From IMG/VR virus record IMGVR_UViG_3300034062_005626: DNA of 64,000 nt; one strand, written 5' to 3'. The stretch is from a virus. Its lineage: Duplodnaviria; Caudoviricetes. The number at the start of each line of letters is the position of its first letter. Position 1 is the first letter of the stretch. Under the pieces are notes generated by a model. It ran no database searches, was not told the origin of the DNA, and saw only the letters and a program-made list of their open reading frames with translations. Both the position numbers and the translations under genes were made by a program. Below are positions 2,212 through 54,655 of this stretch, in pieces.

Positions 2212-2215
2212 TAAA

Positions 2216-27215: not shown

Positions 27216-27290
27216 TTTTTGTTTAACATTTTTTATAGTTTATTTTTTTTGTTTATTTTATTCAACAAATTTGTGCCACAATTAAAAGTA

Positions 27291-27335: not shown

Positions 27336-27394
27336 AAAATGTATTTTTTAATTGATTATTAATAAAGTTAGTTATACTTTTTAAAAAAAACAAT

Positions 27395-35294: not shown

Positions 35295-36236
35295 CTATAT
35301 AAGTTCCATAATTTTTCTATATACCTGTAATACGTTTGGATGACATTCAAAAGTTTTTTTATTTTCTAAACAATTCACTAAAGATGGTATACCTTGTATT
35401 GAACCCCACTCTTTTACCCCATGTTTCATGTCTGATGCGCACATCAAATCACAGCCCCCACTAATGTAATTATATTTGTAATTTTGACTACCATTTCTAT
35501 ATGGGGCTCTAAATTCAGGATTAATTGAACTACCTAATTGAATAATTTCACAATCTGTGGTTCCTGCTAAGTGTAATAAACCTGAATCCATTGTAACAAA
35601 ACATGAACTATAATTTATTAAATGCCATGTTTCGTCAATTGAAGTTTTATTCATTAAATTAATTCCTTTTTCTATTTCAAAGTCAAACACAGGTTTATCA
35701 ACATTTGAACCTCCAATTTCTGACGAGTTTTTTCCTATTGATACAACAAAAATTCCTTGTTCATTTAAAAGTTTTGTCAAGATTTTCCAATTATCAATCG
35801 ACCAAGTTCTTGAGTTCCAATTTTGAACAGGGTGAATTAAAACATATTTTCTTGGAAAATTTTTCATTATTGAAACTTTGTTTGGAATAAAATCCAACTT
35901 CATTTCTTCTTTTGTCAACATAAACCCCAAAGAAATTGCATGAATTTGTCTAATGTCCATTACATTATGTTTATTACAAACCCCATTTGGTTTGTAAAAA
36001 ACATCAAAAGAATTAAAAATTTCATATTCATTTTTTTCTTCATCAGTTATTGGGTTAAATAATTCACTATAAACTTTATCCACATATGGATTATTTAAAA
36101 ACAAATATGGGTGATGTGTAATCACCGAAATTTTTTGACCATAAGAATTATATAATTTTCTAATTGTAGGTGTTGAACATAATGTATCGCCTAAAGCTCT
36201 ACTTTCAGTTAAATCTAAACAAATTTTTTTCATCAA
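35295..36236 (-). CDS. GT9-family (heptosyltransferase-like) glycosyltransferase
   Basis: LGDTLCSTPTIRKL, LFLNNPYVDKV, SRTWSIDNW, DSGLLHLAG. Confidence 0.85.
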   Translation of the reverse strand: MMKKICLDLTESRALGDTLCSTPTIRKLYNSYGQKISVITHHPYLFLNNPYVDKVYSELFNPITDEEKNEYEIFNSFDVFYKPNGVCNKHNVMDIRQIHAISLGFMLTKEEMKLDFIPNKVSIMKNFPRKYVLIHPVQNWNSRTWSIDNWKILTKLLNEQGIFVVSIGKNSSEIGGSNVDKPVFDFEIEKGINLMNKTSIDETWHLINYSSCFVTMDSGLLHLAGTTDCEIIQLGSSINPEFRAPYRNGSQNYKYNYISGGCDLMCASDMKHGVKEWGSIQGIPSLVNCLENKKTFECHPNVLQVYRKIMELI

Positions 36237-36287: not shown

Positions 36288-39197
36288 ATGAAATTAAAAT
36301 TAATGTATGTGGTTCCTCATTTATCAACAGGAGGAATGCCACAATTCGTATTAAAAAGAATTGAATCTTTATTGGAATATAAAAATGAAATTGAAGTTTT
36401 TCTTGTAGAATACTCACAATTTAGCGACACATATATTGTTCAAAGAAATAAGATAATAGAATTACTGGATGTTGGTCATTTTTTTTCATTAGGTTGGTTT
36501 ACAGAGCCTGAAAAAAAATATCAACTAATTGATATTATAAAAGAAAACAAGATTGATATTGTCCATATTGAAGAAATACCTGAAGGGTTTGAAAGTTTCA
36601 ATAAAATTCCTTTGGATATACTTAATCAACTTTATGATAATAATAGAACGTGGAAAATTGTTGAAAGTTGTCACAATATTTGGTTTGATGGTAATTCAAA
36701 TAAAAAGTTACATCCTGACTATTACTCTTTTGTTACTCCATACCATTTAAGCTCACAGTTTAATAAACTTAATACTCCAAAAAAAGTTTGGGAATACCCC
36801 ATAGAAAATAAAGTAAGTGATATATTAAAAGAGTATTCAATTTATGACAAATCACATAGAGTTCCAACATTAAAAAAAATAATTGAGAGGGAAAACTTAC
36901 AAATTTCTATGACAAAAACACACATTTTAAATGTGGGTCTTTGGACTGAAGGTAAAAATCAAAAAGAAGGTATTGAAGTCGCAAGATTACTTGAAAATAC
37001 ACACCCTGATTTACATTTTCATTTTATTGGAAATCAAGCATCAAATTTTGAAAACTATTGGGGTCCAATTATGAATAACTTACCAAAAAATGTTACAGTA
37101 TGGGGGGAAAGAGAAGATGTTGATACATTTATGAAAGCCTGTGATGTTTTGATGTTTAATTCAACTTGGGAATGTAACCCTTTGGTGGTTAGAGAGGCTA
37201 TTAACTATGGAATGAAGATAATGACAAGAAATCTTCCTCAATATATGGGAATGTTTGATGAATATATAACACCAATTAAATCAAACAACTACGAAGACAT
37301 CAAAAATACCTTACTTGAATTATTAAATTCAAATAAGACTTATGAAATAAATACAAAAAGAGATTTCAAAAAAGAATTATTAGATTTTTATAAAGAAGTT
37401 AATAACGTTTCAAAAACTTTAAACAATCCAATAACAAAAACATATAAGGTAAATAATCATTTTGTTGTTAATCCATTTATTGAAATATCGGGCGAAGAAG
37501 AAACGAACTTTGAAATAACTTTTATTGATGAAGGTGGAAATGTAATTTATCAAAATAATATACCCATAAATTCTTGGGTAAAATTGAATAGGGAATATTA
37601 CACAAAATGGACAATTAGAGTTAAAGAAGATAATAGTGTAATTTTTTCTAACATTTTAAATTTAGAAAATAGAAGAGTTTACATTTCTTTTGGTTCAAAA
37701 TCCCTTGGAGATTCTTTGGCTTGGATTCCGTACTGCGAAGAATTTAGAAAAAAACATAATTGCGAATTAATTGTGTCAACATTTTTAAATGATTTATTCA
37801 AAGACCAATACCCAAATATTGAATTTGTTGAGCCAGGTGAAACTGTATATGATATATATGCTCAATACCAACTTGGTTGGTTTTATAATGAAAATGGTGA
37901 ATTTGATTCAAATAAACATCCCTTTGATTTTAAAAAACAACCACTACAAAAAACGGCAACAGATATTTTAGGTTTAGATTATGTTGAAATTAGACCTGAA
38001 TTAAAATTGCCAAACATTACAAAAAAGAAAAAAGTGGGCATTGGGTTTCATTCAACAGCACAAGCAAAATATTGGAATAACCCTGATGGTTGGCAGGTGG
38101 TTATAGATTATTTAGATTCATTAGGTTATGAATGTATGATATACTCAAAAGAGGGTAATGGTTATATGAATAATTTTTATCCAAAAGGGGTTACGATTTA
38201 TAAAGGTGGAAACCTTCAAGAAGTAATTGATGATTTATCCGCCTGTGAGTTTTTTGTAGGTTTAGGTTCAGGATTATCTTGGTTGGCGTGGGCATGTAAA
38301 ATACCCGTAGTTTTGGTTTCAGGATTTAGTGAAAAATGGGCTGAGACAACCTTAGACACATATAGAGTTATAAATGAAAATGTATGTCATGGATGTTTTA
38401 ATAATGATAGATTAAATGCTGGAGATTGGAATTGGTGTCCGTTACATAAAGGAACTAACAGACAATTTGAATGTACAAAAGAAATAAGTTCTGATATGGT
38501 CATAAAAGAAATAAATAAAATAATTAACAAAGAAATGATAGAAGATAAACAATTTGATTGGGGTAAAAAAAGTGAATGGTATGTAAGTCAAGCAACAAAA
38601 GAAATTTTTGAAGATGATGCTTATGAAAGATTTTTTGAAGTTGAAGAGGGGGATATAGTTGTCGATTTGGGGGCATCGATTGGTCCTTTTACCTATAAAA
38701 TTTTACCTAAAAACCCAAAACAATGTTATGTTGTTGAACCTTTATCTTATCATATAAATGTTTTACATAAAAACGTAGGAGAAGATAATGTTAAAATTAT
38801 TCAAGGAGCAATTACGGATAAAAAGAATATAGAAATAACATGGGACGGTATAACAGAAAGTGTTCCTACATTTTCATTCAGAGAATTTTTAAATGAAAAT
38901 AAAATAAATAAAATAGATTTTTTAAAGTGTGATTGTGAAGGTGGTGAGTATGATGTATTTCAACCGTCCAATATAGATTTTTTAAAAACAATACCAAAAA
39001 TTGTAACAGAATTTCATTTAGTAAATGATGAAAACTTCCACGAATGTAAGTTTAGATGGTTCAGAGATAATATACTACCAAAATTTGAAAATTATAAAGT
39101 GTATTCTTACGATGGTGTTGATATAAAATGGGATTTATGGAATGACCATTTTATTGAATATTATAATGAAGTTATTATCTATATAGATAATAGATAA
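36288..39197 (+). CDS. tri-domain enzyme: GT4 + autotransporter O-heptosyltransferase (Aah/TibC-like) + FkbM methyltransferase
   Basis: VPHLSTGGMP and WECNPLVVRE (GT4); SKSLGDSLAWIPYCEEFRKKH, GLGSGLSWLAW and CHGC..WCP..EC (BAHT); DLGASIG, DFLKCDCEGGE (FkbM). Confidence 0.85.
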   Translation: MKLKLMYVVPHLSTGGMPQFVLKRIESLLEYKNEIEVFLVEYSQFSDTYIVQRNKIIELLDVGHFFSLGWFTEPEKKYQLIDIIKENKIDIVHIEEIPEGFESFNKIPLDILNQLYDNNRTWKIVESCHNIWFDGNSNKKLHPDYYSFVTPYHLSSQFNKLNTPKKVWEYPIENKVSDILKEYSIYDKSHRVPTLKKIIERENLQISMTKTHILNVGLWTEGKNQKEGIEVARLLENTHPDLHFHFIGNQASNFENYWGPIMNNLPKNVTVWGEREDVDTFMKACDVLMFNSTWECNPLVVREAINYGMKIMTRNLPQYMGMFDEYITPIKSNNYEDIKNTLLELLNSNKTYEINTKRDFKKELLDFYKEVNNVSKTLNNPITKTYKVNNHFVVNPFIEISGEEETNFEITFIDEGGNVIYQNNIPINSWVKLNREYYTKWTIRVKEDNSVIFSNILNLENRRVYISFGSKSLGDSLAWIPYCEEFRKKHNCELIVSTFLNDLFKDQYPNIEFVEPGETVYDIYAQYQLGWFYNENGEFDSNKHPFDFKKQPLQKTATDILGLDYVEIRPELKLPNITKKKKVGIGFHSTAQAKYWNNPDGWQVVIDYLDSLGYECMIYSKEGNGYMNNFYPKGVTIYKGGNLQEVIDDLSACEFFVGLGSGLSWLAWACKIPVVLVSGFSEKWAETTLDTYRVINENVCHGCFNNDRLNAGDWNWCPLHKGTNRQFECTKEISSDMVIKEINKIINKEMIEDKQFDWGKKSEWYVSQATKEIFEDDAYERFFEVEEGDIVVDLGASIGPFTYKILPKNPKQCYVVEPLSYHINVLHKNVGEDNVKIIQGAITDKKNIEITWDGITESVPTFSFREFLNENKINKIDFLKCDCEGGEYDVFQPSNIDFLKTIPKIVTEFHLVNDENFHECKFRWFRDNILPKFENYKVYSYDGVDIKWDLWNDHFIEYYNEVIIYIDNR

Positions 39198-39791
39198 TTA
39201 ACCACAAGGACCGATGGGTTCCCATGACCAAACTCTTCCATCCATATACCACCTATATATCATTGTCCCATCAACATAAAATCCTTCAGGGGCATAATTA
39301 CCACCACATCCACCATAAGGGTATAGTAAATTATTTGTAGAATCGAAACTATAAAACGATGCACTTCCATTACATGCAACGTCAAGGAACTTCCCATAGG
39401 AAAGGGACTTGTCATCACAAGTAGGGGTCGGTGTACAACTACCAAAAAATGACCAAGTCCATCCCATAGTAGTCTCTTGCCAATTATATATATTACCAAA
39501 AGTATCAACATAAAATCCCTCTGGCGCATAATTTAATACGTCGTCACAATAACCAAACTGAAACAATTGTTGAGTTGTCATATTAAAACTATAAAGACCT
39601 GACGATTCAGAACAAGCAATTCCGGGTATTGGCCCAAACTGATAACTTAAATCAACACACGATGTTGGGTCACTTCCAGGCCATCCGGGTATTTCTCTTG
39701 TATCTATTCCTCCTATATATTTTATACTTGAGGATGTAATTCCACCTATTTTAGTAATTAATTCAACATTTACGCCTGATACTGTTCCCAT
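39198..39791 (-). CDS. fibre-associated protein with two tandem Cys/aromatic repeats
   Basis: Two about 60-aa units each with NYAPEGFYVD and W-x-W..G-x-C. Confidence 0.65.
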   Translation of the reverse strand: MGTVSGVNVELITKIGGITSSSIKYIGGIDTREIPGWPGSDPTSCVDLSYQFGPIPGIACSESSGLYSFNMTTQQLFQFGYCDDVLNYAPEGFYVDTFGNIYNWQETTMGWTWSFFGSCTPTPTCDDKSLSYGKFLDVACNGSASFYSFDSTNNLLYPYGGCGGNYAPEGFYVDGTMIYRWYMDGRVWSWEPIGPCG

Positions 39792-39795: not shown

Positions 39796-42700
39796 TTATA
39801 TTTCTACCCAAGTATTATCAGGATTGAAATAAATTGTTTCAGTAGTCCCATCTAAACTATACCCTATGATTCTTATTATATCACCAGTTCCTGAAGGTGC
39901 TGTTGTTGTTATACCACCCGTGCTTGTTGAAACGTATAAAATATCTCCCGTGGTTGTAGAAAATCCTGCATCTCCTGAATTTCTAATATACCCTCTTATT
40001 AACATACCTTTTGACGGTTGCGTATCCAGTGCGAAGGCTAATAATCCTGTTGCTCCTGATGCTGCGTTCGCGTCAGTTGCAACCCAAGCTCCTGAACTAT
40101 TATAATAGTATAAATTACCTGCGGTTGTTGAACCCGTTCCAAAGGTTACTATGTCACCATATCCACTTACGGAAGTTGTTAATTCTGTTGTTGGGTCATG
40201 ATAAAATGAATAATCGCCATTAACATGTAATCTTCTTACGGGTACAATTGTACCGATTCCAACATTGTCAGTTGATGCATCAGCATAAAATAATCCATCT
40301 GTACCTCCTCCTTTAATTTGAAAATGAGATACGGCATTTTGAGTATTATTAAATATTGAAGTTCCCTCGTCTGTAAAAATTGCGTAATTAGTAGTTGCTC
40401 CCGCCGAACTAACTCTAACACCATAATTTTCTAAAGCATCATTTGATACAGAAACATTTAAACCGTATTTAACACTTGTGCTTGGTGATGCAGTACCATT
40501 AACAATAAAACTACCACCCGTTTGAGTATCAGAACCTAATGAATTTGTATTACTATTTGAAACTTTTATACCATTACTGTCACCGGTAGTACCATTAATT
40601 CTTGCTGAAAACGCATCGTTTGATATTGTTCCACCAAATACAGTGACATCATGACCTACAGTAGTATAACAATTACCAAAAACATTAAAAATAGTTCCAG
40701 TTTTACCCCCCACCCCATTTCCGTGGTCCCCAAATACGCTCCCCTCAATACCTAGTTGGTATGACGAATCTTTTAATGAATGATTTGTAATTCTAATACC
40801 TACATTTTCTCCATATATAGTACCATTACCTACTGTGACAACGGACCCGACATTTTCAACCGTTGCATCATATACTAAAATATCATGACCTGTTAAACCA
40901 GAAACAATAGCTTGCCCTTGACCTGTAACTTTTGAAACAGAATATCCAAAACTTTGACTGGTTTGTGTCGATGTAACATGTAATCCAAAAGTGTCGTTTC
41001 CTATTGAATCTAAAATAAATTGATGTCCCTGAACCGCCAATCTTTGAGTTCCTCCGTTGAATATTAAATTATTATCTGAAACTATACCTCCCGCACCATC
41101 TGAGCGTAAAACTTGGTATGTTGACCCACTAACACTTGGCGATGTTCCACTACTTCCTGACGTTCCATTTGTACCACTGGTGCCGTTAGTTCCTGAAGTT
41201 CCATTTGCCCCTGAACTACCTGATGTACCATTTGTTCCTGATGAGCCCGAAGTACCGTTAGTACCTGATGTTCCATTCGTTCCACTTGTTCCATTTGTTC
41301 CCGAACTACCTGATGTTCCGTTAGTTCCGTCTGTACCTGATGTTCCATTAGTACCACTTGAACCCGAGGTTCCATTAGTACCTGATGTACCGTTTGTACC
41401 GCTACTACCGCTTGTTCCGTTGGTTCCACTTGTACCATTAGTTCCACTCGTGCCGTTTGTGCCTGATGTTCCGTTTGTGCCGCTCGAACCTGAAGTGCCG
41501 TTAGTACCTGAGCTTCCACTAGTACCGTTAGTGCCAGATGTTCCGTTAGTACCACTACTTCCTGAAGTTCCATTTGTTCCTGACGTTCCATTTGTTCCCG
41601 ATGTTCCGGCAGCCGTTAATAAATTTGTCCCAACACCCGCAGCACAGGCTGTTATGTCTATAAAGGCACCTCTTGCAGAGCCCCCTTGTTCAAAAAATCT
41701 AACTCTATTTTGCCACACGTCAAAAGTAACTCCAGTACCTGATATTGACGTGTTTGTTGCAGGTTTGTTTAATAATATTTCTCCACCTTCATCACCAGCT
41801 TGATACAATACACTTAATTTTGTACCGTCAAAAGTTAAAAGAGATTCCGCAACTATTGCTCCCGAACCGTTTGAAGTTAATATTTGGTCATTTGACCCTG
41901 GTACTGTTGGTGATGTCCCGCTACTTCCTGATGTACCGTTTGTTCCTGAACTTCCACTCGTTCCGTTTGTCCCGCTCGTTCCATTTGTACCTGAGCTTCC
42001 ACTAGTGCCGTTAGTTCCTGACGAACCACTAGTTCCACTACTACCTGATGTTCCATTTGTACCCGAACTTCCACTAGTACCATTCGTCCCGCTAGTTCCA
42101 TTTGTACCTGAAGTTCCGTTAGTTCCTGATGTGCCATTCGTACCAGATGAACCACTAGTTCCGTTTGTACCACTACTACCGCTAGTTCCGTTAGTACCAC
42201 TAGTTCCGTTAGTACCACTCGAACCTGAAGTCCCATCTGTACCTGAACTACCGCTGGTACCGTTTGTTCCGTTAGTTCCCGATGTCCCATTTGTACCTGA
42301 GGTTCCGTTTGTGCCATTCGTTCCCGATGTACCATTTGTTCCTGACGTTCCATTCGTTCCCGATGTACCATTTGTTCCTGACGTTCCATTTGTTCCCGAT
42401 GTTCCATTTGTTCCGTTTGTACCTGATGTTCCATTCGTTCCTGAGGTTCCATTTGTTCCACTAGTACCGTTTGTTCCATTCGTTCCTGAGGTTCCATTCG
42501 TTCCGCTAGTACCGTTTGTTCCATTCGTTCCGCTAGTACCATTAGTTCCTGAAGTTCCATTGGTTCCGTTAGTGCCTGATGTACCATTCGTACCAGATGA
42601 ACCACTAGTTCCGTTTGTACCACTACTACCACTACTACCACTTGTGCCATTTGTACCGCTAGTTCCGTTTGTCCCTGATGTTCCATCCGTACCTGAACTA

Positions 42701-44805
42701 CCTGAAGTTCCGTTTGTCCCTGAAGACCCCGATGTGCCATTAGTACCATTTGTACCGCTAGTCCCATTTGTTCCTGAAGTTCCGTTGGTCCCACTACTTC
42801 CACTCGTACCATTTGTACCACTTGAACCCGAAGTTCCATTCGTACCGCTAGTACCATTAGTTCCACTCGAACCTGATGTCCCTGAAGAACCACTACTTCC
42901 ATTTGTTCCGTTTGTTCCTGAAGAGCCGCTAGTCCCATTTGTACCACTACTACCACTTGTACCATTTGTACCTGAAGAGCCGTTGGTTCCGTTAGTGCCG
43001 CTACTACCACTGGTCCCATTTGTACCCGATGTACCATTTGTTCCACTACTTCCTGACGTACCATTCGTACCACTAGTTCCATTTGTTCCCGAACTACCTG
43101 AAGTTCCGTTAGTGCCACTTGTTCCAGAAGACCCTGCAGGTCCTGGAGCACCCGCTAAATTAATGTCCCAAGTGGCATACGTACCCGTTCCTGTATTATT
43201 GGTACTTGAGATTACAAATGCCCCCGTAGATGAATTATAGGATGATATTGTACCTTCAAATCTATTGGATAAATTGTGAGCAACAATTACTGTTTGACCC
43301 ACAGTATATGAAAGTCCAGTACCTCCCGTTAAATTAACTGTCGTTGGGTGTACAGTTGGAATAGCTATTGATGTAGTGGATGTTGTTGAATAAATATCCC
43401 CGTCTTGACCGCTAGTGCCGTCAGTTCCTGAAGTACCACTACTTCCTGAAGTCCCGTTTGTTCCTGAACTACCTGAAGTTCCATTTGTCCCGTTTGTTCC
43501 CGAAGTACCATTCGTTCCGGATGAACCCGAAGTGCCGTTAGTACCACTTGTACCATTAGTTCCACTTGTTCCGTTAGTTCCTGATGTTCCATTAGTTCCA
43601 CTTGTACCATTAGTTCCACTTGTACCATTAGTACCGTTGGTTCCACTAGTCCCATTCGTTCCTGAAGTTCCGTTTGTGCCTGAGGAACCACTAGTACCAT
43701 TTGTTCCATTTGTCCCTGAAGACCCTGATGTTCCGTTAGTACCACTTGAACCGTTTGTCCCTGAAGAACCACTAGTTCCATTTGTACCACTAGAACCTGA
43801 AGAGCCGTCCGTTCCACTTGAACCCGAGGTTCCATTAGTGCCTGAAGACCCACTTGTTCCACTTGAACCTGAAGAACCGTTTGTTCCATTAGTACCGCTT
43901 GAACCCGATGTTCCATTTGTGCCCGATGTTCCATTTGTTCCCGATGTTCCATTTGTGCCCGATGTTCCATTAGTACCCGATGTTCCGTTAGTTCCGCTTG
44001 AACCCGATGTTCCGTTAGTACCCGATGTTCCGTTAGTTCCGCTTGAACCAGATGTCCCATTAGTACCTGAAGAACCACTAGTTCCATTAGTACCTGACGT
44101 TCCATTAGTTCCGCTACTACCACTTGAACCATCCGTACCATCGACTCCCGATATTCCACTTGTACCGTTTGTTCCTGATGTCCCACTACTACCTGAAGTG
44201 CCAGAACCTCCACCCGTAGTAAACCCTGTCACACTCACAGTTTGACCATCAGTTCTTGTTAGTTGTAAAGTTGTTGTTCCTGAATTATAGGTTCCACCTG
44301 TAACATATATGTCGGTAAATCCTGTTAAAAATCCATTAACATTAAAAGTCCCTCCTGTATTGTTTGTAAATGTTGCAACACCATTATTTGGATTATATGT
44401 TCCTCCTGTTACAAATATTTCTGGAGGTAATCCTAAATATGTTGACGCAGATATTGTAAATGCACTTAAAGATTGTGTGAATAATGTATTTCCACTCACA
44501 GTTCCACCACTTAATGGTAGATATTCACCTGTGGCTGAACCACTATTAAAAATACTCCAATCAGTTATAGTATTTGACCATGGAGCGACATTTAACTTAT
44601 AATAAGTTGTACCACCACTCACACCAACTACCATCCCCGCTCTTCTTCTTAAAGTTGGTATAGCGTTTAAATCACTTATAGTATTGACGTTTCTTAAACC
44701 ATCAATACCATAAATTGGGTCAATTACCGGATATACATCACTAGTGTCGCTTGGGGATATAAACCCAAAAACTTCAACACCACCTGATAGACTAAATGAA
44801 CTCAT
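39796..44805 (-). CDS. giant collagen-like (Gly-X-Y) fibre protein, 1669 aa
   Basis: N-terminal IPTLRRRAGMVV motif common in phage fibres; three Gly-X-Y tracts of GTN/GTS/GSS; beta-rich C-terminus. Confidence 0.8.
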   Translation of the reverse strand: MSSFSLSGGVEVFGFISPSDTSDVYPVIDPIYGIDGLRNVNTISDLNAIPTLRRRAGMVVGVSGGTTYYKLNVAPWSNTITDWSIFNSGSATGEYLPLSGGTVSGNTLFTQSLSAFTISASTYLGLPPEIFVTGGTYNPNNGVATFTNNTGGTFNVNGFLTGFTDIYVTGGTYNSGTTTLQLTRTDGQTVSVTGFTTGGGSGTSGSSGTSGTNGTSGISGVDGTDGSSGSSGTNGTSGTNGTSGSSGTNGTSGSSGTNGTSGTNGTSGSSGTNGTSGTNGTSGTNGTSGTNGTSGTNGTSGSSGTNGTNGSSGSSGTSGSSGTNGTSGSSGTDGSSGSSGTNGTSGSSGTNGSSGTNGTSGSSGTNGTNGTSGSSGTNGTSGTNGTSGTNGTNGTSGTNGTSGTNGTSGTNGTSGTNGTSGTNGTSGSSGTNGTSGTNGTNGTSGSSGTNGTSGSSGTSGTDGTSGQDGDIYSTTSTTSIAIPTVHPTTVNLTGGTGLSYTVGQTVIVAHNLSNRFEGTISSYNSSTGAFVISSTNNTGTGTYATWDINLAGAPGPAGSSGTSGTNGTSGSSGTNGTSGTNGTSGSSGTNGTSGTNGTSGSSGTNGTNGSSGTNGTSGSSGTNGTSGSSGTNGTNGSSGSSGTSGSSGTNGTSGTNGTSGSSGTNGTSGSSGTNGTSGTNGTSGTNGTNGTSGSSGTNGTSGSSGTDGTSGTNGTSGTNGTSGSSGSSGTNGTSGSSGTNGTSGTNGTNGTSGTNGTSGTNGTNGTSGTNGTSGTNGTNGTSGTNGTSGTNGTSGTNGTNGTSGTNGTSGTNGTSGTNGTSGTNGTSGTNGTNGTSGTNGTSGTNGTNGTSGSSGTDGTSGSSGTNGTSGTNGTSGSSGTNGTSGSSGTNGTSGTNGTSGTNGTSGTNGTSGSSGTNGTSGSSGTSGSSGTNGTSGSSGTNGTSGTNGTSGSSGTNGTSGSSGTSPTVPGSNDQILTSNGSGAIVAESLLTFDGTKLSVLYQAGDEGGEILLNKPATNTSISGTGVTFDVWQNRVRFFEQGGSARGAFIDITACAAGVGTNLLTAAGTSGTNGTSGTNGTSGSSGTNGTSGTNGTSGSSGTNGTSGSSGTNGTSGTNGTSGTNGTSGTNGTSGSSGTNGTSGTNGTSGSSGTNGTSGTDGTNGTSGSSGTNGTSGTNGTSGTNGTSGSSGTNGTSGSSGANGTSGTNGTSGTNGTSGSSGTSPSVSGSTYQVLRSDGAGGIVSDNNLIFNGGTQRLAVQGHQFILDSIGNDTFGLHVTSTQTSQSFGYSVSKVTGQGQAIVSGLTGHDILVYDATVENVGSVVTVGNGTIYGENVGIRITNHSLKDSSYQLGIEGSVFGDHGNGVGGKTGTIFNVFGNCYTTVGHDVTVFGGTISNDAFSARINGTTGDSNGIKVSNSNTNSLGSDTQTGGSFIVNGTASPSTSVKYGLNVSVSNDALENYGVRVSSAGATTNYAIFTDEGTSIFNNTQNAVSHFQIKGGGTDGLFYADASTDNVGIGTIVPVRRLHVNGDYSFYHDPTTELTTSVSGYGDIVTFGTGSTTAGNLYYYNSSGAWVATDANAASGATGLLAFALDTQPSKGMLIRGYIRNSGDAGFSTTTGDILYVSTSTGGITTTAPSGTGDIIRIIGYSLDGTTETIYFNPDNTWVEI
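41140..41607 (-). repeat. Gly-X-Y tract 3 (GTN/GTS/GSS)
   Basis: Gly at every third residue; 9-bp periodicity with varied wobble bases. Confidence 0.9.
41911..43153 (-). repeat. Gly-X-Y tract 2 (GTN/GTS/GSS)
   Basis: About 410 residues, uninterrupted triplets beginning GAPGPAGSS. Confidence 0.9.
43399..44205 (-). repeat. Gly-X-Y tract 1 (GTN/GTS/GSS)
   Basis: About 270 residues of triplets. Confidence 0.9.
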
Positions 44806-44806: not shown

Positions 44807-45577
44807 TTAACTACACATCCATATATTCAAATTACTTGCGGCTTGATAGAATGTTCTATAAATATTGTAAACCACAGGGAATCCGTTTAAATCGTTTATT
44901 GTCACTTGTCCTATGTTATTCATAGGTACTACTAATCCATCACAACCATTCGTACTTGAAACAAATCCTGACGGTTGTTGTAATGAAGTAGGAATCAATA
45001 TATAACTATATGCAGAACCAAAACCAATACTTACGTAGTTGTTAATTGCTGGTGAAAGATATATAAATGTTAAATTACTAACCACCTGACCACTCGTCAC
45101 AGTAGTACCTGTAAATTTACCATAGTAAACACCCAAAGGTAATGGTGTAGGACTTGGTGTAGGAGTCGGTGTCGGTGTAGGTGTTGGAGTAGGTGTTGGA
45201 ACAATTACAGGTATTGTTCTTGGACCACAACAAAAATCAGTATTTGATATAGATTCTGTAATATTAATATAAAGTCTTTCTTTCAATGGTATTTGAATTG
45301 ACCCTTGACTATTTGTTACAAAAAAAGACCCTTCGTATCTTCCAACATCACTTGTGTTTCTTTTTGTAAATTGATAATATATCATTTCGTTTGTAGAATC
45401 ATAAGTACAATTACCTCTTGCAACTTTATAAATACCCGTTTCTTCATTGGTCATGTAAAACAAAATGGTGGAGCCACTCAAAGAAGAATCTTTAAGATTA
45501 AAACTTGTCCTTCCATTTTTGAAAATATCAAGACCTAAAACAGGTAAGGTTGCATTTTTTCTGATAAAAAACTCCAT
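44807..45577 (-). CDS. BppU-N-like virion protein with (PT)n linker (start moved to 45577)
   Basis: FFIRKNATLP..., YQFTKRNTSDVGRYEGSF resemble BppU N-terminal domain; PTPTPTPTPTPTPSPTP linker. Confidence 0.6.
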   Translation of the reverse strand: MEFFIRKNATLPVLGLDIFKNGRTSFNLKDSSLSGSTILFYMTNEETGIYKVARGNCTYDSTNEMIYYQFTKRNTSDVGRYEGSFFVTNSQGSIQIPLKERLYINITESISNTDFCCGPRTIPVIVPTPTPTPTPTPTPTPSPTPLPLGVYYGKFTGTTVTSGQVVSNLTFIYLSPAINNYVSIGFGSAYSYILIPTSLQQPSGFVSSTNGCDGLVVPMNNIGQVTINDLNGFPVVYNIYRTFYQAASNLNIWMCS

Positions 45578-45601
45578 ATTGATAAATAGTCCATACAAGA
45601 A

Positions 45602-45730: not shown

Positions 45731-48700
45731 TTAAAAGAATGTATTCATTACATTTAAGAATGAATCCTGAACAATTAAACTATCGTATCCTAGTTCAATC
45801 ATTTTATTTTTTTCTGTCTGTAATTCTCTTATAAATTTTATATCTGAAATATTATTTTGACTTATTAAAGATTCAATAATAAAATCAAATCTTTTTTCAA
45901 CTAATCTTTTTTCAACTAACATACTTGATTTCATTTCTTTTTGTTCTTTGATAATATTTTTAATTCTATTGTCTAAATTTGTTGTTCTACTATAAATATT
46001 TTCATTTTCATTAACTTGCAAAGTTATTTCCATAAATTCTATTGATGGTGAAACATTTGTTAATTGTTTTATGTAATCCAAACTTTTTCTAGATAATTTA
46101 TTTCTAAGTGTGGTATGACAACCAACAATTTTTTGTTTGTCTTTTTTTAATTGTGTTTTATCTATTGAGTCAGCAGAAATAGTTTTTCTATATAATGACA
46201 CATAAGTTTGATAATATTGTTCAATTATATTTTCACAACTTTTTAAATCAGAAAGTTTTTTTGGTTCTTTTTCAGGTCCAATTTTTGTTAATTCAAACTC
46301 AAAATTATTATTTTCCTTATTTGAAACTAATTTCAATCTTTCTGTTTTTAATTCATACCCATCTTTTTCAAGGGTAATAAAAACAATTTTATTATTTTCA
46401 GGTTCAGATTTTCTGTTTAATCCTCTTTTTATTTTTCCACCCTGAAAAGGTATTACACCCTCTATTGATTTTTTTGGGTTGTTTCTATCTTCAATGATTG
46501 CAAATTCCACACCATCGATTGTTTTATTATCTTGGTCAACAACTTTAAGTAAATTGAATTTAAAAAATGCGTCATTTTTGTCAAGTTTGATATAAAATTC
46601 ATTTTCACCTCTTTTTTTAATTTTTAATTTACCTTTTTCTGTGTCATACCCTTCATTTGATATTTCGTAATAAACTTCCGATGTTTCAAAATTTCTTGGT
46701 CTTCTGTCTAATTTAATAAAGTCCTCTACAGACCCTTTACCTGAAGTTAAAAGTTCTTTTTTACTACTATCTGAATAAACCATAATACTAGCATCAGACA
46801 AAGGCATATTATTTTCTGAGTCAGACGCAAGTATTGAGTATTGAAATTGTGTATTGATTGATACTTCAAAAATATTTGACGAAGACATGTCGTAAGAATC
46901 TGTTTTTATTCTACTTACTATTTTTTTTTCTTTTTTTCCATTGAATACACAAAGTTCAAATTCTTTTGGGGTTCCCTTTTTACCTTTAAAACTTGCAACA
47001 ATCTGAACTTTTGTTTTTTCTTCACAAGGTAAATCTTTATTTTTTTTAAATTTATCGTTATAAGGTATTACAAAATTTGATAATTTTCCATTATTGTCGG
47101 TTTTACTTCTTGCTATTATTTCATTGCCAATTAAAAAAGATACGTCAGCGTTAGAAATATTTTCACCATCTTCATCTAAAACTGTTACATCAACAACACA
47201 CACCTGTTCAGTTTTAACTATTCTTTTTGTTGCGACCTCCTTTTTATCTAAAGATTTAAACTTATAATTTTTTTGAATTTTTGTGTTTGAAGTTATTTCT
47301 AAATTTTCTGTTTCCGTTGAACCGTAGTCCATGTGAAAAAATTTTAATTTATACGAACCAATAGGTACGTTTAGAATTTCATAGTTCCCTTCACCATCAG
47401 AAATAGCCCCATAACTTTTACCTGCGGTTGATAATGTTACTTTTGCACCTGATAGAGGATTATCGGTTGAGTCTGTAATTTTACCAAAAACTGTTGCAGA
47501 ATTGTCATCCTCATTTAGATAATATTTTTCAAAATATTCCTTCATAAATAATTTTTTATCAGATAGAATTATAGTTACTTCTTTATCTTGATTGTCCATT
47601 TTGAAATTATAATTTTTCAATGATGAAAATTTATTATTGGTGTCAACTGTCAACAAATAATCACCTAATTCTATATTTTCAAATTCAAAATTTCCTTCGT
47701 AGTCAGATTCTGTTTTATAAGTTATATTTTTAATTGTTTTGTGTTGTAAAGTTATTTTAGCCGTTGTTGGTTTTAATTTATTAGCAATAGTAAGAGTTGA
47801 TAGTGTTTCATTATCAACAATATCTTTTAAACCATCAACAACTTTTGAATCTTTATTTTTTGATAATGTTGCTTTCACAAAACCTGTTAATGTTCCTGAT
47901 TTTAAAATTCCTTTGGTTCTATTTTGATTTGTCAAATCAGAATACACGTCAGTTACTCTTGGTCGTTCTGAGTTGTACTTTACCAAATCTTCTATTGTGT
48001 CAGTTTTTGTTTTTACTTTGTAAGTAGATTTTAACGAATCTTTTGAAATGGTTTCAAATTCACCATCGTAAACCGAACCATTTGCAAAAGTCATTTTTCC
48101 AATACCATCTATTTTTCCATCATAAAATTCTCCTTCATACACATCGCCATTTTCAAATGTAATTTTTCCTTCACCTTCAGGTTTTCCATTATCGAATGAA
48201 CCTTCGTATGTAAATGTGTCGTCATGAAAATTTGGTCTAAATGGTGATACGTAAATTTTACCAGCGGATTCCGATGAAATGTTATGTAATTTACCTTTAC
48301 CTTGGGGTTTACCATTTTCTACCTCACCTTCATAGTACCCTTCATCATTATCTATGATTGTTTTTCCTGAATCGGTTTGTGTTAATGGTTCTTCGTTGTT
48401 TGGGGTTTCAATCCATTCATTATCCTTAAAATAATAAACATAACCCGAACTATCTGTTTTTGTACCGGTAAAATGATTATCTTCATCCCATGTCCCTTCT
48501 AGAACCTCACCGTCGGGCCTAATAATTTTACCTGACAAAAAACGATTATTTTCATCAAAAATACCATCTTCAACCGCATTTGAACTTTTGTAAGTCCTTT
48601 GACCTTTATAAAGGTATTCATTTCCAAATTTATTAAGTTTAAAGTCACCTTGTTCTATACCAGAACCATTTTCTTTCTTACCTAATATAAGTTTACCATT

Positions 48701-48853
48701 TTGAAATCTACCACTCACTATTGTACCATCATCTTTGGTTAAAGTACCAACACCATTTTCGCAATCACCCACGCAAGTATCTTCTTTGAGTAATTGATAA
48801 AGACCAAGTATTTTTTTCTTTTCACTTTCAGATATGATGATTGCTTTTGACAT
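45731..48853 (-). CDS. leader-bearing multidomain protein: MORN repeats + carboxypeptidase-regulatory-like beta-sandwich repeats
   Basis: Leader MSKAIIISESEKKKILGLYQLLKE; YEGEVENGKPQGKG / YEGEFYDGKIDGIG MORN units; GKITDSTDNPLSGAKVTL..AISDGEGNYEILNVPIGSY. Confidence 0.8.
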   Translation of the reverse strand: MSKAIIISESEKKKILGLYQLLKEDTCVGDCENGVGTLTKDDGTIVSGRFQNGKLILGKKENGSGIEQGDFKLNKFGNEYLYKGQRTYKSSNAVEDGIFDENNRFLSGKIIRPDGEVLEGTWDEDNHFTGTKTDSSGYVYYFKDNEWIETPNNEEPLTQTDSGKTIIDNDEGYYEGEVENGKPQGKGKLHNISSESAGKIYVSPFRPNFHDDTFTYEGSFDNGKPEGEGKITFENGDVYEGEFYDGKIDGIGKMTFANGSVYDGEFETISKDSLKSTYKVKTKTDTIEDLVKYNSERPRVTDVYSDLTNQNRTKGILKSGTLTGFVKATLSKNKDSKVVDGLKDIVDNETLSTLTIANKLKPTTAKITLQHKTIKNITYKTESDYEGNFEFENIELGDYLLTVDTNNKFSSLKNYNFKMDNQDKEVTIILSDKKLFMKEYFEKYYLNEDDNSATVFGKITDSTDNPLSGAKVTLSTAGKSYGAISDGEGNYEILNVPIGSYKLKFFHMDYGSTETENLEITSNTKIQKNYKFKSLDKKEVATKRIVKTEQVCVVDVTVLDEDGENISNADVSFLIGNEIIARSKTDNNGKLSNFVIPYNDKFKKNKDLPCEEKTKVQIVASFKGKKGTPKEFELCVFNGKKEKKIVSRIKTDSYDMSSSNIFEVSINTQFQYSILASDSENNMPLSDASIMVYSDSSKKELLTSGKGSVEDFIKLDRRPRNFETSEVYYEISNEGYDTEKGKLKIKKRGENEFYIKLDKNDAFFKFNLLKVVDQDNKTIDGVEFAIIEDRNNPKKSIEGVIPFQGGKIKRGLNRKSEPENNKIVFITLEKDGYELKTERLKLVSNKENNNFEFELTKIGPEKEPKKLSDLKSCENIIEQYYQTYVSLYRKTISADSIDKTQLKKDKQKIVGCHTTLRNKLSRKSLDYIKQLTNVSPSIEFMEITLQVNENENIYSRTTNLDNRIKNIIKEQKEMKSSMLVEKRLVEKRFDFIIESLISQNNISDIKFIRELQTEKNKMIELGYDSLIVQDSFLNVMNTFF

Positions 48854-52237: not shown

Positions 52238-54655
52238 TTATTTTTTGTTTAAAACAGTGTCAACTAATTGAAATTTTTTTACTTGGTCTTCCATGTTGTT
52301 ACCAAAATTCATATTCATCCAATAATCTACAACTTCCATACTGTCTTTTTTTTGCTCATCTGTTAAAGTATTAGGGTCCGGTTCTTTTTGTGTGTTTTCC
52401 CAGTTGTCGATTAAGTTTGATAATGCTAATTCTAATATTTTTTTATTTTCTTCTTCTTTATCTATTTTTAAATTTGTTATATTTTTTATAGTCGCCCCTT
52501 CTGTTAAATCATAAATTAAGGCCGACAATGTTTTGGAATCAACTTTTCCTGTCTGTTCTAATCCTTTATTTTTTTGATAAACTTCAACCATTGTTTTTGT
52601 AATATCATCAAAATAACCCCAATTTACTCTTGATTTGGCTCCACCTTCAGAAAATAGCCCACCTGTTATACTTTCTAAAGACAAGTTATTATTTATTAAA
52701 CCACTTTCTTTTTTTGTACCATTTTTATACTCAAATTTTAATTTAAAACTTGGGGATAAATTTATTTTTTTTGAAGTGACTTCTTTTTTTCCCATAGGTC
52801 TTATGGTGTCAACTACACGGTCACCAGGGATTGTGTTTATTATTTCTATTTTATTTATAGAACTAACATTAATTAACGTTAATTTTGAGTTTTGATAATT
52901 TCCTAATGTGCCCATGTTTTTAGCAACTAGTTTTGAAATTAAATTTGAAGATTTAGTTTTTCCCTTACTTCCATCGAAAAAATTTTCAATTTTATAATCA
53001 ATACCCATTAAAGGTACCCCCACAACTTGAGCCAACATAGACTGTAACATTTCAACTTCGATTTCATATGAATTTTTATATCTGTCACTCATGACAACAT
53101 TTTTTTGTAACATGGTTTCAAAAGTGCTCTTAAGTAAAAAATTAAATAATCTTTGTTTATCTAGTTGGATTTTTTTAGCTTCCTCCATTAATTTAATTTC
53201 TGCAAGTTTTTTACATTCTTCGGGCGAACTAGTAAAAGGTTGAGGGTTTAACTGTGTTATAAGTTCATTTTTTCTGTCATTGATAATCTTTTCGTACGCA
53301 ATATCCCCTTTGTATTTTTTTGTCTCTACTCCAATAATTTTAGTAAGCTCATCCCAATTAAAAGTTGCAGAGCATTTTCCTAAATTATTGTAAGCCCACC
53401 AATCATAACTATATGTAATACCCCAAATTTTATAAATGGTTCTCATAAAACTATTATTCCAGCCACTAGATTTTGCCACTTCATTCACTAAGTCTACTAC
53501 AAATTTTGCTCCTTTACTTTTTAAACCTGCTTGTAGAATTTTATTAAAATTTTTCTTTAATTTTGGTAAAATAACTTTTGGGTTTAATATATCTTTCATA
53601 AATTCTTTCTCAACAGAAGTTAATGTTTCTGGAGTTTGACTAATAAGTTTTTTTGATATTTCATTTAAAGCCTTTTTTTCTGTTCCTGCAATTTTTGCTA
53701 GTTTGGCAAAACTTTTAAACGAGTTTAATTCTGAGAATGGTATTAAAGCCATCGCAAACGTAAAACCCGCCAAATAAGGGTCTTCATCATAAAATTCATA
53801 AAGAGCTGCATCTATCATTTCTAATGCTGAACCAACCACAGGACCTGCGGGAGGAAAGAAATTTAACATTAAACTTATTATCGGTATAATTGTATGGTAC
53901 GCAGAAACGTATGAATCAAAATTAGGTTCACTAGATGATTTATATGTATCAACAACTTTTCTAACCACATCTCCCGATTCAATGTCACGGTTTAACATAG
54001 GTTGTTTAAATGCGTTTACAGTTTTTATGTTTGACACTGCAACAGGTATGTTTATTTGGGAACCTGGGTTTCCTGGTGAAGAACCAAAAAAACTATTTAA
54101 AAAATTCCAAGGGCCTCCATCAAAAAGGTCTATATTTTGTGTTAATTTAGGGTAGTTGAAATAAAAGTCTTGTAAAACAAAAGTGTTATATATATTTCTA
54201 CTTTGAATTTGTGTGTCATCAACACCAAGTCCCGACTGTTTTGTAGGGTATAATTGTTGATTTAATGTATCTATTAGATTTTGGTCAAACTTACTAAATT
54301 TCCATTCACCTCCTGATTTACCACCCAACACATTTACTTTAAAAAAAGAATCCAAGGTTGTGTATTGAATTTCATTAAACAAGAGATTTGTTAAATATCT
54401 CATGGCTGATAATGCCGCGTCATTGTACGCATCAGTTCCCGAATTGTAATTTGGACACCCCCAAACCCAATAACTTTTTGGTATTTTAAAAAAACCTAAT
54501 TGAAATAACAAAGATTTTACACTCGCAGCCTCTTTAGATTTACACCACTCAGATTCACTTAAAACTATTTCTCTATTCTCAATAATAGTTTTACTTCTAT
54601 CGAAATTAATAAGTGATAATTGCCTTAAAATTTCTTCATGTAAATTGTCTTTCAT
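52238..54655 (-). CDS. large leader-bearing protein with hydrophobic hairpin and C-terminal peptidoglycan-binding domain (possible ejection protein)
   Basis: Leader ..IVLSE|SE; IIPIISLMLNFFPPAGPVVGSAL / LAGFTFAMALIP; GYFDDITKTMVEVYQKNKGLEQTGKVDSKTLSAL (PG_binding_1 pattern). Confidence 0.7.
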   Translation of the reverse strand: MKDNLHEEILRQLSLINFDRSKTIIENREIVLSESEWCKSKEAASVKSLLFQLGFFKIPKSYWVWGCPNYNSGTDAYNDAALSAMRYLTNLLFNEIQYTTLDSFFKVNVLGGKSGGEWKFSKFDQNLIDTLNQQLYPTKQSGLGVDDTQIQSRNIYNTFVLQDFYFNYPKLTQNIDLFDGGPWNFLNSFFGSSPGNPGSQINIPVAVSNIKTVNAFKQPMLNRDIESGDVVRKVVDTYKSSSEPNFDSYVSAYHTIIPIISLMLNFFPPAGPVVGSALEMIDAALYEFYDEDPYLAGFTFAMALIPFSELNSFKSFAKLAKIAGTEKKALNEISKKLISQTPETLTSVEKEFMKDILNPKVILPKLKKNFNKILQAGLKSKGAKFVVDLVNEVAKSSGWNNSFMRTIYKIWGITYSYDWWAYNNLGKCSATFNWDELTKIIGVETKKYKGDIAYEKIINDRKNELITQLNPQPFTSSPEECKKLAEIKLMEEAKKIQLDKQRLFNFLLKSTFETMLQKNVVMSDRYKNSYEIEVEMLQSMLAQVVGVPLMGIDYKIENFFDGSKGKTKSSNLISKLVAKNMGTLGNYQNSKLTLINVSSINKIEIINTIPGDRVVDTIRPMGKKEVTSKKINLSPSFKLKFEYKNGTKKESGLINNNLSLESITGGLFSEGGAKSRVNWGYFDDITKTMVEVYQKNKGLEQTGKVDSKTLSALIYDLTEGATIKNITNLKIDKEEENKKILELALSNLIDNWENTQKEPDPNTLTDEQKKDSMEVVDYWMNMNFGNNMEDQVKKFQLVDTVLNKK

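Follow-up and report, generated by a model that had tools for sequence, protein, structure and literature searches.

Collagen-like phage fibres, glycosylated BclA and TibC-type glycosyltransferases are each known, and it is their combination that is absent from the literature searched, in which no paper connected TibC-type enzymes with phage collagen fibres and none dealt with Microcystis phage Mel-JY01. In C. difficile, a glycosyltransferase gene reportedly adjoins the collagen-like gene for BclA. This protein, described from the exosporium of Bacillus anthracis/cereus and from C. difficile, combines an N-terminal anchor with a Thr-rich O-glycosylated collagen-like region and a C-terminal globular trimer (PMC8968730), and the phage fibre described here has the corresponding parts and is likewise predicted to be glycosylated and trimeric. 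BclA differs in its G-P-T triplets, with Pro at X and Thr at Y, whereas the phage fibre has Thr at X and Ser or Asn at Y with no Pro. It also differs in its TNF/C1q-like C-terminal domain, in being served by glycosyltransferase families other than the TibC type found here, and in belonging to a spore and not to a virion.

TibC-type enzymes form a family of protein O-glycosyltransferases, and those known so far modify beta-helical autotransporters, not Gly-X-Y chains (PMC4358343). With the E. coli pairs TibC-TibA and Aah-AIDA-I (PDB identifier 4RAP; PMC4358343), the enzyme encoded beside the phage fibre gene shares a passing TIGR04414 score, the catalytic Asp-110, Thr-226, Lys-230, Trp-305 and the four Cys of the iron finger (Cys-339/342/358/370). 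TibC likewise adjoins a highly repetitive Ser-rich substrate, but the candidate substrate here is a phage Gly-X-Y fibre and not a beta-helical autotransporter. The cellular enzymes further differ in keeping Arg-286, while in the phage protein the TibC-type domain is joined to GT4 and FkbM domains.

Among phage proteins, P5 of PRD1 is said to be a collagen-like fibre with Gly-X-Y segments. Tail fibres with collagen-like segments in phages and prophages (E. coli O157 prophages, PMC3368898; streptococcal phage HylP, PDB identifier 6WV2) share with the present fibre the placing of Gly-X-Y shaft pieces between folded trimeric modules. In those proteins the collagen segments are no longer than tens of triplets and include Pro and charged residues, whereas the fibre described here has 281 triplets (up to 843 in relatives), consists almost only of Thr, Ser and Asn besides Gly, and comes with a dedicated, linked glycosyltransferase. 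Virus-encoded glycosylation of virion proteins is documented for the mimivirus collagen with L230 and for the fibril glycans of giant viruses (PMC9614988), and capsid and tail glycosylation of mycobacteriophages is cited in PMC11256854 and PMC12363180. In these viruses, as proposed for the fibre locus, the virus's own glycosyltransferases coat its own structural proteins, although enzyme families, acceptors and hosts are different and neither a TibC-type enzyme nor a proline-free collagen is involved.

Glycosylation can take the place of hydroxyproline in animals, as in the cuticle collagen of the tube worm Riftia, where a triple helix low in hydroxyproline is stabilized by O-glycosylated hydroxy-amino acids at Y; the precedent concerns galactosylated Thr in Gly-Pro-Thr of an animal collagen, with no relation to the phage enzyme. 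A Gly tripeptide periodicity like that of the fibre also occurs in the snow flea antifreeze protein and in the polyglycine-II domains of T-even adhesins, which are compact bundles of short polyproline-II (PPII) strands and turns with a Gly content well above one-third. Since the gene described here adjoins that of a TibC-type enzyme, which many phages encode together with such fibres, we consider an O-glycosylated collagen-like rod most likely, viz., a trimeric collagen-like virion fibre whose Ser and Thr residues would be modified by the neighbouring TibC-type fusion, and we assign this reading a probability of roughly 0.55.

Anatomy of the fibre gene

The window, i.e. the whole stretch of 64,000 nucleotides analysed, comes from a distant T4-like, large phage and carries a Gp23-type capsid protein, a T4-type portal and a T4-type terminase. 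The fibre gene (39796..44805, minus strand) is one long uninterrupted ORF of 1,669 amino acids, whose reading frame is fixed by the existence of homologues for both of its non-repeat ends. A script run on the translation recovered all three strict Gly-X-Y tracts, mostly of Thr, Ser and Asn, that an earlier sequence-only reading had described, at coordinates within a few bases of those it gave: tract 1 (residues 199-471, 91 triplets, 43393..44211), tract 2 (residues 552-965, 138 triplets, 41911..43152) and tract 3 (residues 1067-1222, 52 triplets, 41140..41607), all on the minus strand. Together these make 281 triplets or 843 residues, in runs of 273, 414 and 156 residues without interruption, and at ~0.29 nm per residue they return the same ~240 nm that had been estimated for the rod. 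The X position holds Thr 217 times (77%) and Ser 56 times, and the Y position Ser 162, Asn 108 and Asp 8 times; the 562 X and Y positions thus contain almost only Thr, Ser and Asn besides the 8 Asp and 2 Pro, both Pro lying in GAP-GPA at the start of tract 2. Ser, Thr and Asn make up ~65% of the tracts and Gly exactly one-third, and there are no charge pairs.

The Pfam Collagen model (PF01391) matches the fibre with 375 bits (cut-off 27), NCBIfam collagen models also match strongly, and PHROG tail-fibre families find it as well. Gly at every third residue over up to 138 triplets cannot have arisen by chance, and such fibres range from 28 to 843 triplets, with unbroken runs of 566 and 843 triplets in relatives. 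The triplets GTN, GTS and GSS are encoded by 20, 40 and 23 different 9-mers, respectively, both Ser codon families are in use, and the longest exact repeat is 47 nt. With its codons scrambled in this manner, the Gly-X-Y pattern must be maintained by selection on the protein. Recent slippage or repeat expansion at the DNA level was also considered and is ruled out by the scrambled codons.

The N-terminal module (residues 1-95, 44521..44805, minus strand) also opens numerous long, modular fibre or tailspike-like proteins of phages, with 60-84% identity. Among 8,000 candidates scored, 690 match it (917-2,921 aa), and Gly-X-Y tracts are present in none of the top 120. In these proteins the same module precedes varied distal parts, including beta-repeat shafts and domains that by eye are putatively beta-helix-like, and the C-termini vary as well. 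The module was also mapped at 80 viral loci. Its AF2 model (pLDDT 69) gives weak matches (Z <=5, VIA-align) to N-proximal domains of phage tailspikes, and Foldseek returned nothing at E <=0.001 for this model. It is followed by two 'VTGGTY..TFTNNTGGTFNV.GF'-type beta repeats (residues 96-198, 44212..44520, minus strand), evident in the sequence and as beta strands in the model, a repeat type that is the usual shaft unit in non-collagen relatives.

The two small spacers reported between the tracts are real. Spacer 1 (80 aa, residues 472-551, 43153..43392, minus strand) terminates in ..ATWDINLAGAPGPAG and recurs in other fibres, with four copies in each of three of them. Spacer 2 (101 aa, residues 966-1066, 41608..41910, minus strand), which has counterparts with 65-90% identity in the fibres of nine related loci, begins with a post-collagen cap motif, SSGTSP[TS]V.GS..Q.L.S.G.G.IV., that is also seen after tract 3 (39% identity over 61 aa, E 7e-10). 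Beyond tract 3 lies a non-collagen distal shaft (residues 1223-1540, 40186..41139, minus strand), which an AF2 monomer shows as extended, with low to moderate confidence. Over short stretches it resembles the intertwined beta-helix domains of Bdellovibrio fibres (Z up to 6.2 over 45 residues) and, less closely, phage HylP (Z 4.8-4.9).

The C-terminal globular module (residues 1541-1669, 39799..40185, minus strand) is modelled with high confidence (AF2 pLDDT 93-98), and the model folds like the trimeric cement/decoration proteins of phage capsids. VIA-align aligned 112-126 of its residues with those of HFTV1, Pam3, XM1, FCWL1 and Adjutor at Z scores of 9.9 (8qsy), 9.8 (8hdt), 8.6, 8.5 and 8.4. 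The module has 4,323 homologues, takes the extreme C-terminus at the 20 viral loci mapped, and occurs in one copy per genome; it is the commonest C-terminus among such fibres (16 of ~55), where it combines with at least three N-terminal types. By sequence it has no PF09956 match, nor any Pfam match even at E up to 5. PDB sequence searches with the N- and C-terminal regions gave nothing useful, a profile of 102 sequences came back empty, and Pfam and PHROG scans of the isolated N-terminal module, both spacers, the distal shaft, the C-terminal module and the two small flanking ORFs gave sub-threshold matches only. The nearest related record (53 kb, 15% complete) contains nothing matching the C-terminal region.

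We prefer attachment of the fibre by its N-terminus, at the tail or baseplate. The cement-like fold does raise a different possibility, less probable in our judgement but deserving weight, that the protein is a head fibre held on the capsid by its C-terminal domain, with the collagen rod and the N-terminal module pointing outwards. All of the best twelve fold matches of this domain are capsid cement/decoration proteins, Atlas neighbours of the module bear PF09956 (phage cement protein), and its single copy, its frequency as a C-terminus and its exchangeable N-terminal partners suit such an arrangement. However, conservation of an N-terminal module ahead of variable distal parts is the usual mark of an attachment end, a distant homologue in phage Tunturi_5 is annotated as a tail fibre, the same fold is found in the C-terminal domain of phi29 gp12, a tail appendage (Z 6.5), and the PF09956 family is not matched by the module's own sequence. 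Gene neighbours of the C-terminal module's homologues at the viral loci fetched mostly carry no annotation.

The TibC-type neighbour and its linkage to proline-free fibres

Convergent with the fibre gene is a gene for a 969-aa glycosyltransferase fusion of three domains (36288..39197, plus strand; Pfam and TIGR04414). It comprises a GT4 domain (residues 199-353, Pfam), a TibC/Aah-type iron-finger glycosyltransferase domain (residues 406-745, 37503-38522, plus strand) and an FkbM methyltransferase domain (residues 791-910, Pfam). The middle domain scores 295.1 bits with TIGR04414, against an equivalog cut-off of 200, and is matched by the TibC structure 4RAP with an E of 5.5e-66 in an alignment spanning TibC 51-386. 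All 63 phage sequences compared retain Asp-110, Trp-305 and the four Cys, while 62 retain Lys-230 and 60 Thr-226. The sugar-binding Arg-286 of TibC is replaced by Val in the neighbour enzyme and by Val or Leu in 57 of the 63 phage sequences, whereas it is retained by all 35 scorable cellular homologues. A stand-alone GT9-like glycosyltransferase of 313 aa (35295..36236, minus strand; PF01075 at 57 bits) is encoded next to the fusion gene, and the two are syntenic in many relatives. None of the neighbour genes scanned contains an autotransporter domain.

Two small ORFs flank the fibre gene. The one immediately downstream (39198..39791, minus strand, 197 aa) found no match in family scans. Its homologues adjoin the glycosyltransferase at three related loci, an ORF of ~190 aa usually comes next after fibre genes with the same C-terminal module, and it is possibly an assembly factor. 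The one immediately upstream (44807..45598, minus strand, 263 aa) keeps its place directly before the fibre at six related loci and is a candidate adaptor, with a sub-threshold match to BppU_N (E 0.029).

At least 120 viral contigs encode the TibC-type domain. At 51 of 80 loci with the enzyme (29 of 46 clusters), a proline-free G-[TS]-[SND] fibre is encoded no more than 10 kb away, and in close relatives the two genes are convergent and 13-3,200 bp apart, with the misses falling at contig ends. None of the 38 cellular TibC-type loci has such a fibre. Conversely, among the 80 loci with the N-terminal module the enzyme occurs at 5 of the 10 with a proline-free fibre and at 0 of the 70 without, where the fibres are non-collagen (p 1e-5), and among Gly-X-Y loci it occurs at 10 of the 31 with a proline-free fibre versus 1 of the 49 with a proline-containing collagen fibre (p 2e-4), these Fisher p-values overstating independence since the compared loci are kin. 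The pairing is also present in a cultured cyanophage, Mel-JY01. The Gly-X-Y fibre is thus a conserved partner of the phage TibC-type enzyme.

A separate observation concerns annotation: in the GenBank record of Mel-JY01 such a gene is called on the wrong strand, an error that is easily made with these genes. Large phages of fresh water and of cyanobacteria commonly carry the fibre-enzyme module.

Adjacency could also reflect nothing but shared late expression, the rod being collagen-like and unmodified while the neighbouring glycosyltransferases act elsewhere, on another virion protein, on glycans of the host envelope or on DNA. Phage glycosyltransferases for other targets are frequent, weaker GT9-like genes adjoin non-collagen fibres, and 17 of the 46 enzyme clusters have no such fibre in the fetched flanks, some of which are complete, so that the enzyme may have other substrates. 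We nonetheless regard this explanation as improbable, given that the linkage survives rearrangement, persists down to 41-50% enzyme identity and into the cyanophage, is specific to proline-free Ser/Thr fibres, and involves a family of protein O-glycosyltransferases (PMC4358343).

A proposed glycosylated rod and rival folds

In the O-glycosylated collagen-like rod that we favour, exchangeable N- and C-terminal modules would bound a shaft of three collagen-like segments, hinged at the two globular spacers and, if triple-helical, ~78, 118 and 45 nm long. Three chains would be set in register, probably by the C-terminal cement-like module and by the cap motif after tracts 2 and 3, and the strict Gly at each third residue would then permit a collagen-type triple helix. 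As the triplets G-T-S, G-T-N and G-S-S come without proline and charge pairs, we propose that this helix depends on O-glycosylation of the Ser and Thr hydroxyls, ~435 per chain, with the Ser at Y as the most conserved candidate acceptor. The TibC-type domain would attach the first sugar, and the glycan would then be lengthened by the GT4 domain, perhaps aided by the separate GT9-like enzyme, and methylated by the FkbM domain. This first sugar need not be heptose, since the phage clade has replaced Arg-286 of TibC; in five relatives there is no GmhA-type isomerase of the heptose pathway, and a PfkB-type kinase is present in one. It is conceivable, though we advance it only tentatively, that this clade uses a donor other than ADP-heptose and glycosylates Ser/Thr of nascent Gly-X-Y chains, the sugar coat letting an unstable proline-free sequence fold as a collagen triple helix.

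The tracts might instead not be triple-helical at all. In collagen host-guest studies, Thr at X and Ser or Asn at Y are reported to be poor triple-helix formers, so the tracts may not fold as collagen, and with their high content of Ser, Thr and Asn, without Pro or charge pairs, and a linked glycosyltransferase, they could make up an extended brush, mucin-like and heavily O-glycosylated, or a flexible tether. Such a brush has no need of Gly at each third position, yet the period is unbroken up to 138 triplets (843 in relatives) despite scrambled codons, which argues for a packing constraint at a helix axis, and folded modules typical of trimeric fibres are present at both ends. We therefore think a brush or tether quite unlikely.

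The sequence-only reading had counted, by eye, roughly 100 N-G-T/S sequons and proposed, as one of two readings, a very long glycosylated whisker. The count stands at 112 (N-G-T 107, N-G-S 5), with 123 N-x-S/T in the whole protein. It is, however, a property of composition, because Asn at Y always precedes Gly-Thr or Gly-Ser. Across 43 enzyme-linked fibres Ser/Thr is always kept, while Asn at Y varies from 0 to 65% (<=2% in nine of them) and the sequons from 1 to 416 per fibre; with Asn varying and Ser/Thr constant, the N-G-T sequons are best seen as a side effect of GTN triplets. That the fibre is N-glycosylated at these sites by a cytoplasmic N-glycosyltransferase or an oligosaccharyltransferase is thus very unlikely. 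Cytoplasmic enzymes of the HMW1C type that use N-x-S/T do exist in bacteria, but the adjoining enzyme is of an O-glycosylating family, and neither GT41 (HMW1C type) nor STT3/PglB was detected in five near-complete relatives or among the window ORFs scanned. Of the earlier proposal there remain a very long phage fibre and, given the TibC-type neighbour, its likely glycosylation; the sequons drop out as the reason for it.

The other fold suggested there, a PPII bundle in the manner of the snow flea antifreeze protein or the polyglycine sandwich of phage adhesins, with Thr arrays binding ice or polysaccharide, can be set aside as highly implausible: Gly at every third residue fits PPII helices in general and some ice binders have Thr arrays, but ice binding is backed here by Thr content alone, tracts of 91, 138 and 52 triplets without a break (566 and 843 in relatives) leave no turn segments for folding a bundle, Gly is exactly one-third with X mostly beta-branched Thr and not Gly or Ala, and the collagen models of Pfam and NCBIfam match strongly.

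Implications for phage fibres and collagen

If a sugar coat does stabilize the helix in place of proline and charge pairs, the sequence rules for collagen would be widened, and these fibres would represent an independent microbial answer to a problem solved in animals by hydroxyproline. They would also provide a genetically simple, length-programmable rod for biomaterials. For the phages themselves, it would mean that many large phages build fibres from rods whose length can be tuned between 28 and 843 triplets, and hundreds of sugars on each fibre would alter adsorption, stickiness towards mucus or polysaccharide, and the way in which grazers or immune systems recognize them.

Gly-X-Y tracts and their fold

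The ORF 39796-44805 (minus strand) is open across 1,669 residues, and a script for uninterrupted Gly-X-Y recovers three minus-strand tracts in it, at residues 199-471 (91 triplets; window 43393-44211), 552-965 (138 triplets; window 41911-43152) and 1067-1222 (52 triplets; window 41140-41607). They are kept apart by two spacers of 80 and 101 residues, and the positions proposed in the sequence-only reading thus hold almost to the base. Together the tracts comprise 281 triplets (843 residues), each without a break in the Gly period. By script count, the X position is Thr in 217 and Ser in 56 triplets and the Y position is Ser in 162, Asn in 108 and Asp in 8; only two prolines are present, and the fibre holds 107 N-G-T and 5 N-G-S sequons. 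The Pfam Collagen model matches the fibre with 375 bits, and NCBIfam collagen-adhesin models also match it. At the DNA level the repeats are just 60-85% alike. GTN, GTS and GSS are encoded by 20, 40 and 23 distinct 9-mers, respectively, Ser codons come from both families, and no exact DNA repeat is longer than 47 nt, which rules out recent slippage as the origin of the tracts. The Gly-X-Y pattern is therefore upheld by selection on the protein.

Despite the scrambled codons, the Gly period runs unbroken over 273, 414 and 156 residues in the fibre and over 843 triplets in the comparison contig L168, as a collagen-type helix would require. A mucin-like brush does not call for Gly at every third residue. 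A polyproline-II bundle, which the sequence-only reading had offered along with ice binding, demands short strands with turns and more Gly; the tracts have no such strands and their Gly content is not above one third, so this reading is abandoned. As regards the triple helix, host-guest peptide studies place Thr at X and Ser or Asn at Y among the weaker formers, and the tracts contain no Pro or charge pairing; it is for this reason that a glycosyltransferase as constant companion becomes meaningful. The cuticle collagen of Riftia is stabilised by glycosylated Thr. BclA is likewise an O-glycosylated, Thr-rich bacterial collagen (PMC8968730). By analogy, sugar on Ser/Thr would allow the proline-free tracts of the phage fibre to hold a triple helix.

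The neighbouring TibC-type enzyme and the probable sugar linkage

Convergent with the fibre operon, the gene at 36288-39197 (plus strand) encodes a 969-residue protein composed of a GT4 domain, a central TibC-type domain and an FkbM methyltransferase, and a stand-alone GT9-like gene comes after it. The central domain scores 295 bits against TIGR04414 ('autotransporter strand-loop-strand O-heptosyltransferase', Aah/TibC; curated cut-off 200) and aligns to residues 51-386 of TibC (PDB identifier 4RAP) with an E-value of 5.5e-66. Mapping the functional residues of TibC (PMC4358343) onto it by alignment reveals that the catalytic Asp-110, the sugar-binding Thr-226, Lys-230 and Trp-305 and the four iron-finger cysteines are kept. 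Of 63 distinct phage sequences, all have Asp-110, Trp-305 and the cysteines, 60 have Thr-226 and 62 have Lys-230. Arg-286 is replaced by Val in the neighbour enzyme and by Val or Leu in 57 of the 63; Ser-294 and Pro-300, discussed for heptose stereoselectivity in TibC, are likewise replaced. Arg-286 is kept in 35/35 scorable cellular homologues (mostly Proteobacteria; 33-38% identity). The phage enzymes are thus a clade of their own, possibly with a donor sugar other than that of TibC. A GmhA-type isomerase is absent from all five relatives, and a PfkB-type kinase fragment is present in only one of them.

The sequence-only reading had rested its glycosylated whisker on the N-G-T sequons. The sequon count, however, says nothing beyond composition, because the triplet order itself places Gly-Thr/Ser after each Asn at Y. 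Among 43 distinct enzyme-linked fibres, Ser occupies 35-98% of Y positions and Thr plus Ser at least 64% of X positions; Asn at Y varies from 0 to 65%, and sequons number 1-416. What is conserved is the Ser and Thr hydroxyls. TibC-type enzymes glycosylate serine (PMC4358343), and no GT41 or STT3 enzyme was found in five near-complete relatives. The glycosylation is most likely O-linked; what stands of the whisker is a long, probably glycosylated fibre, without its sequon basis.

Terminal modules, attachment and the surrounding genome

The first 95 residues of the fibre (N-module) recur, at 60-84% identity, at the extreme N-terminus of hundreds of phage proteins 900-2,500 aa long, which continue into 'VTGGTY..TFTNNTGGTFNV' beta repeats, stretches resembling beta-helix (judged by eye) and C-termini of several kinds. 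Gly-X-Y tracts are missing from all of the best 120 N-module matches, and in the present fibre the collagen-like tracts take the place of most of the beta-repeat shaft. A shared cap motif, SSGTSP[TS]V.GS..Q.L.S.G.G.IV, follows tracts 2 and 3. The last ~125 residues (C-module) are predicted to form a confident globular domain (pLDDT 93-98). In structural comparison, capsid cement or decoration proteins take all twelve top places, the first five at Z 8.4-9.9; after them come the C-terminal domain of phi29 gp12 (Z 6.5) and the base of the phi29 head fibre (Z 5.7). A separate language-model search led to clusters carrying PF09956 (Phage_cement_2), a family to which no sequence-level match of the C-module was found.

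The C-module has 4,323 homologues and stops 0-9 nt short of the stop codon in all 20 viral loci mapped (ORFs of 300-2,800 aa). Three of five complete relatives (G003, G004 and G005) have one copy of it, always within a large ORF; this ORF is the Ser/Thr collagen-like fibre in all three, for G005 by locus analysis. Both ends are modular among 70 distinct Ser/Thr collagen-like fibres, of which 16 carry the C-module, the commonest C-terminus, paired with at least three N-terminal types. At eight comparison loci (L259, L269, L281, L282, L285, L290, L302 and L305, just past position 8,360) two conserved ORFs (~190 and ~240 aa) without a family match come after the C-module gene, as seen in many small and medium phage contigs; in the window a 197-aa ORF occupies this place.

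Because the N-module is conserved, we favour N-terminal attachment, as in tail fibres and tailspikes, at a probability of roughly 55%. Non-collagen fibres have the N-module too, one distant homologue bears a tail-fibre annotation, and the N-module model gives weak tailspike-like matches. A head fibre anchored on the capsid by the C-module, to which the predicted cement-like fold points, is less likely but plausible, and the remainder falls to neither arrangement.

The window (G+C ~30%) encodes a Gp23-type major capsid protein, a T4-type portal, a T4-type large terminase and a prohead protease. The closest capsid proteins (42-46% identity) belong to an uncultured huge phage, Microcystis phage Mel-JY01 and Flavobacterium phages, and relatives with the TibC-type enzyme are near-complete phage genomes of 249-436 kb. 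In the 623-aa capsid protein (11981-13852, minus strand) the best Gp23 Pfam stretch and PHROG head-protein matches fall mainly on residues 354-608; the ~350 residues ahead of them may be an addition or have diverged strongly. The second gene upstream of the fibre, past a 263-aa ORF, encodes a 1,040-aa protein (45731-48853, minus strand) that combines MORN repeats with carboxypeptidase-regulatory-like, prealbumin-like beta-sandwich domains. The same gene block encodes an 805-aa protein (52238-54655, minus strand) with a PG_binding_1 peptidoglycan-binding domain at residues 680-713, which may be a tail-associated cell-wall-binding or lytic protein. In an 818-aa protein (56471-58927, minus strand), SprB repeats and PKD-like domains are combined with a CHU_C sorting domain for type IX secretion at the C-terminus, a Bacteroidota surface-protein signature within a phage genome. 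Elsewhere, a full-length Hsp70/DnaK (866 bits) adjoins a two-ring ClpB/ClpC-like AAA+ ATPase (25359-29437), and a UvrC-like protein (62483-63757, plus strand) has GIY-YIG nuclease and UvrC RNase H endonuclease domains.

Pairing of enzyme and fibre among phages

From at least 120 matches, 80 viral loci with the TibC-type domain were fetched (46-96% identity), and a linked fibre was taken as a proline-free G-[TS]-[SND] ORF with 20 or more triplets, no further than 10 kb from the enzyme. Such a fibre is present at 51/80 loci, or in 29/46 clusters when redundancy is reduced at 90% identity. Close relatives carry the fibre gene in convergent orientation, 13-3,200 bp past the enzyme gene, and those lacking it are contigs ending within ~2.3 kb; more distant loci retain the pairing in other arrangements. 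As a control, among 80 N-module loci the enzyme accompanies 5/10 with a proline-free Ser/Thr fibre and 0/70 others (p 1e-5), and among 80 loci from a Gly-X-Y query 10/31, many cut by contig ends, and 1/49 others (p 2e-4), p-values that overstate independence since the loci are related to one another. No such fibre lies beside 38 cellular TibC-type loci; among 42 loci from genome assemblies, the sole one with it is a contig of a MAG whose enzyme is of the phage type. Microcystis phage Mel-JY01 has a 50% identical enzyme, fused to FkbM, and ~1.7 kb separate it from a collagen-like ORF of G-T/S-S type. The pairing outlasts rearrangement and extends to an isolated cyanophage.

In the record of this cyanophage (PP395634.1; L241), plus-strand positions 1-3052 form one stop-free frame of 1,016 codons with G-T/S-S collagen-like tracts, extending into the record start. 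The Pro/Val/Glu-rich 'hypothetical protein' that GenBank places at 739-2298 of the minus strand was probably called on the wrong strand of a fibre gene. At four other loci (L095, L102, L104 and L113), two or three tandem ~300-aa ORFs with weak matches to the TibC-type domain, the first resembling the stand-alone GT9-like gene of the window, lie ~4-8 kb upstream of a non-collagen N-module fibre gene and may be a different fibre-modifying set.

The closest known systems are BclA-type glycosylated collagen-like proteins, TibC/Aah with their autotransporters, phage tail fibres with short collagen segments (PMC3368898) and virus-encoded virion glycosylation (PMC9614988), from each of which the present fibre and enzyme differ in composition, enzyme family or substrate class. 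In the literature searched, no paper was found joining a TibC-type enzyme and a proline-free phage collagen fibre. Tracts longer than those of the window occur among the comparison contigs, with 843 unbroken proline-free triplets in L168 (1-9369; a 3,123-aa ORF truncated where the contig stops) and 566 each in L014 (3455-10642) and L047 (3-6056); if triple-helical, these would form rods of ~0.5-0.7 micrometre.
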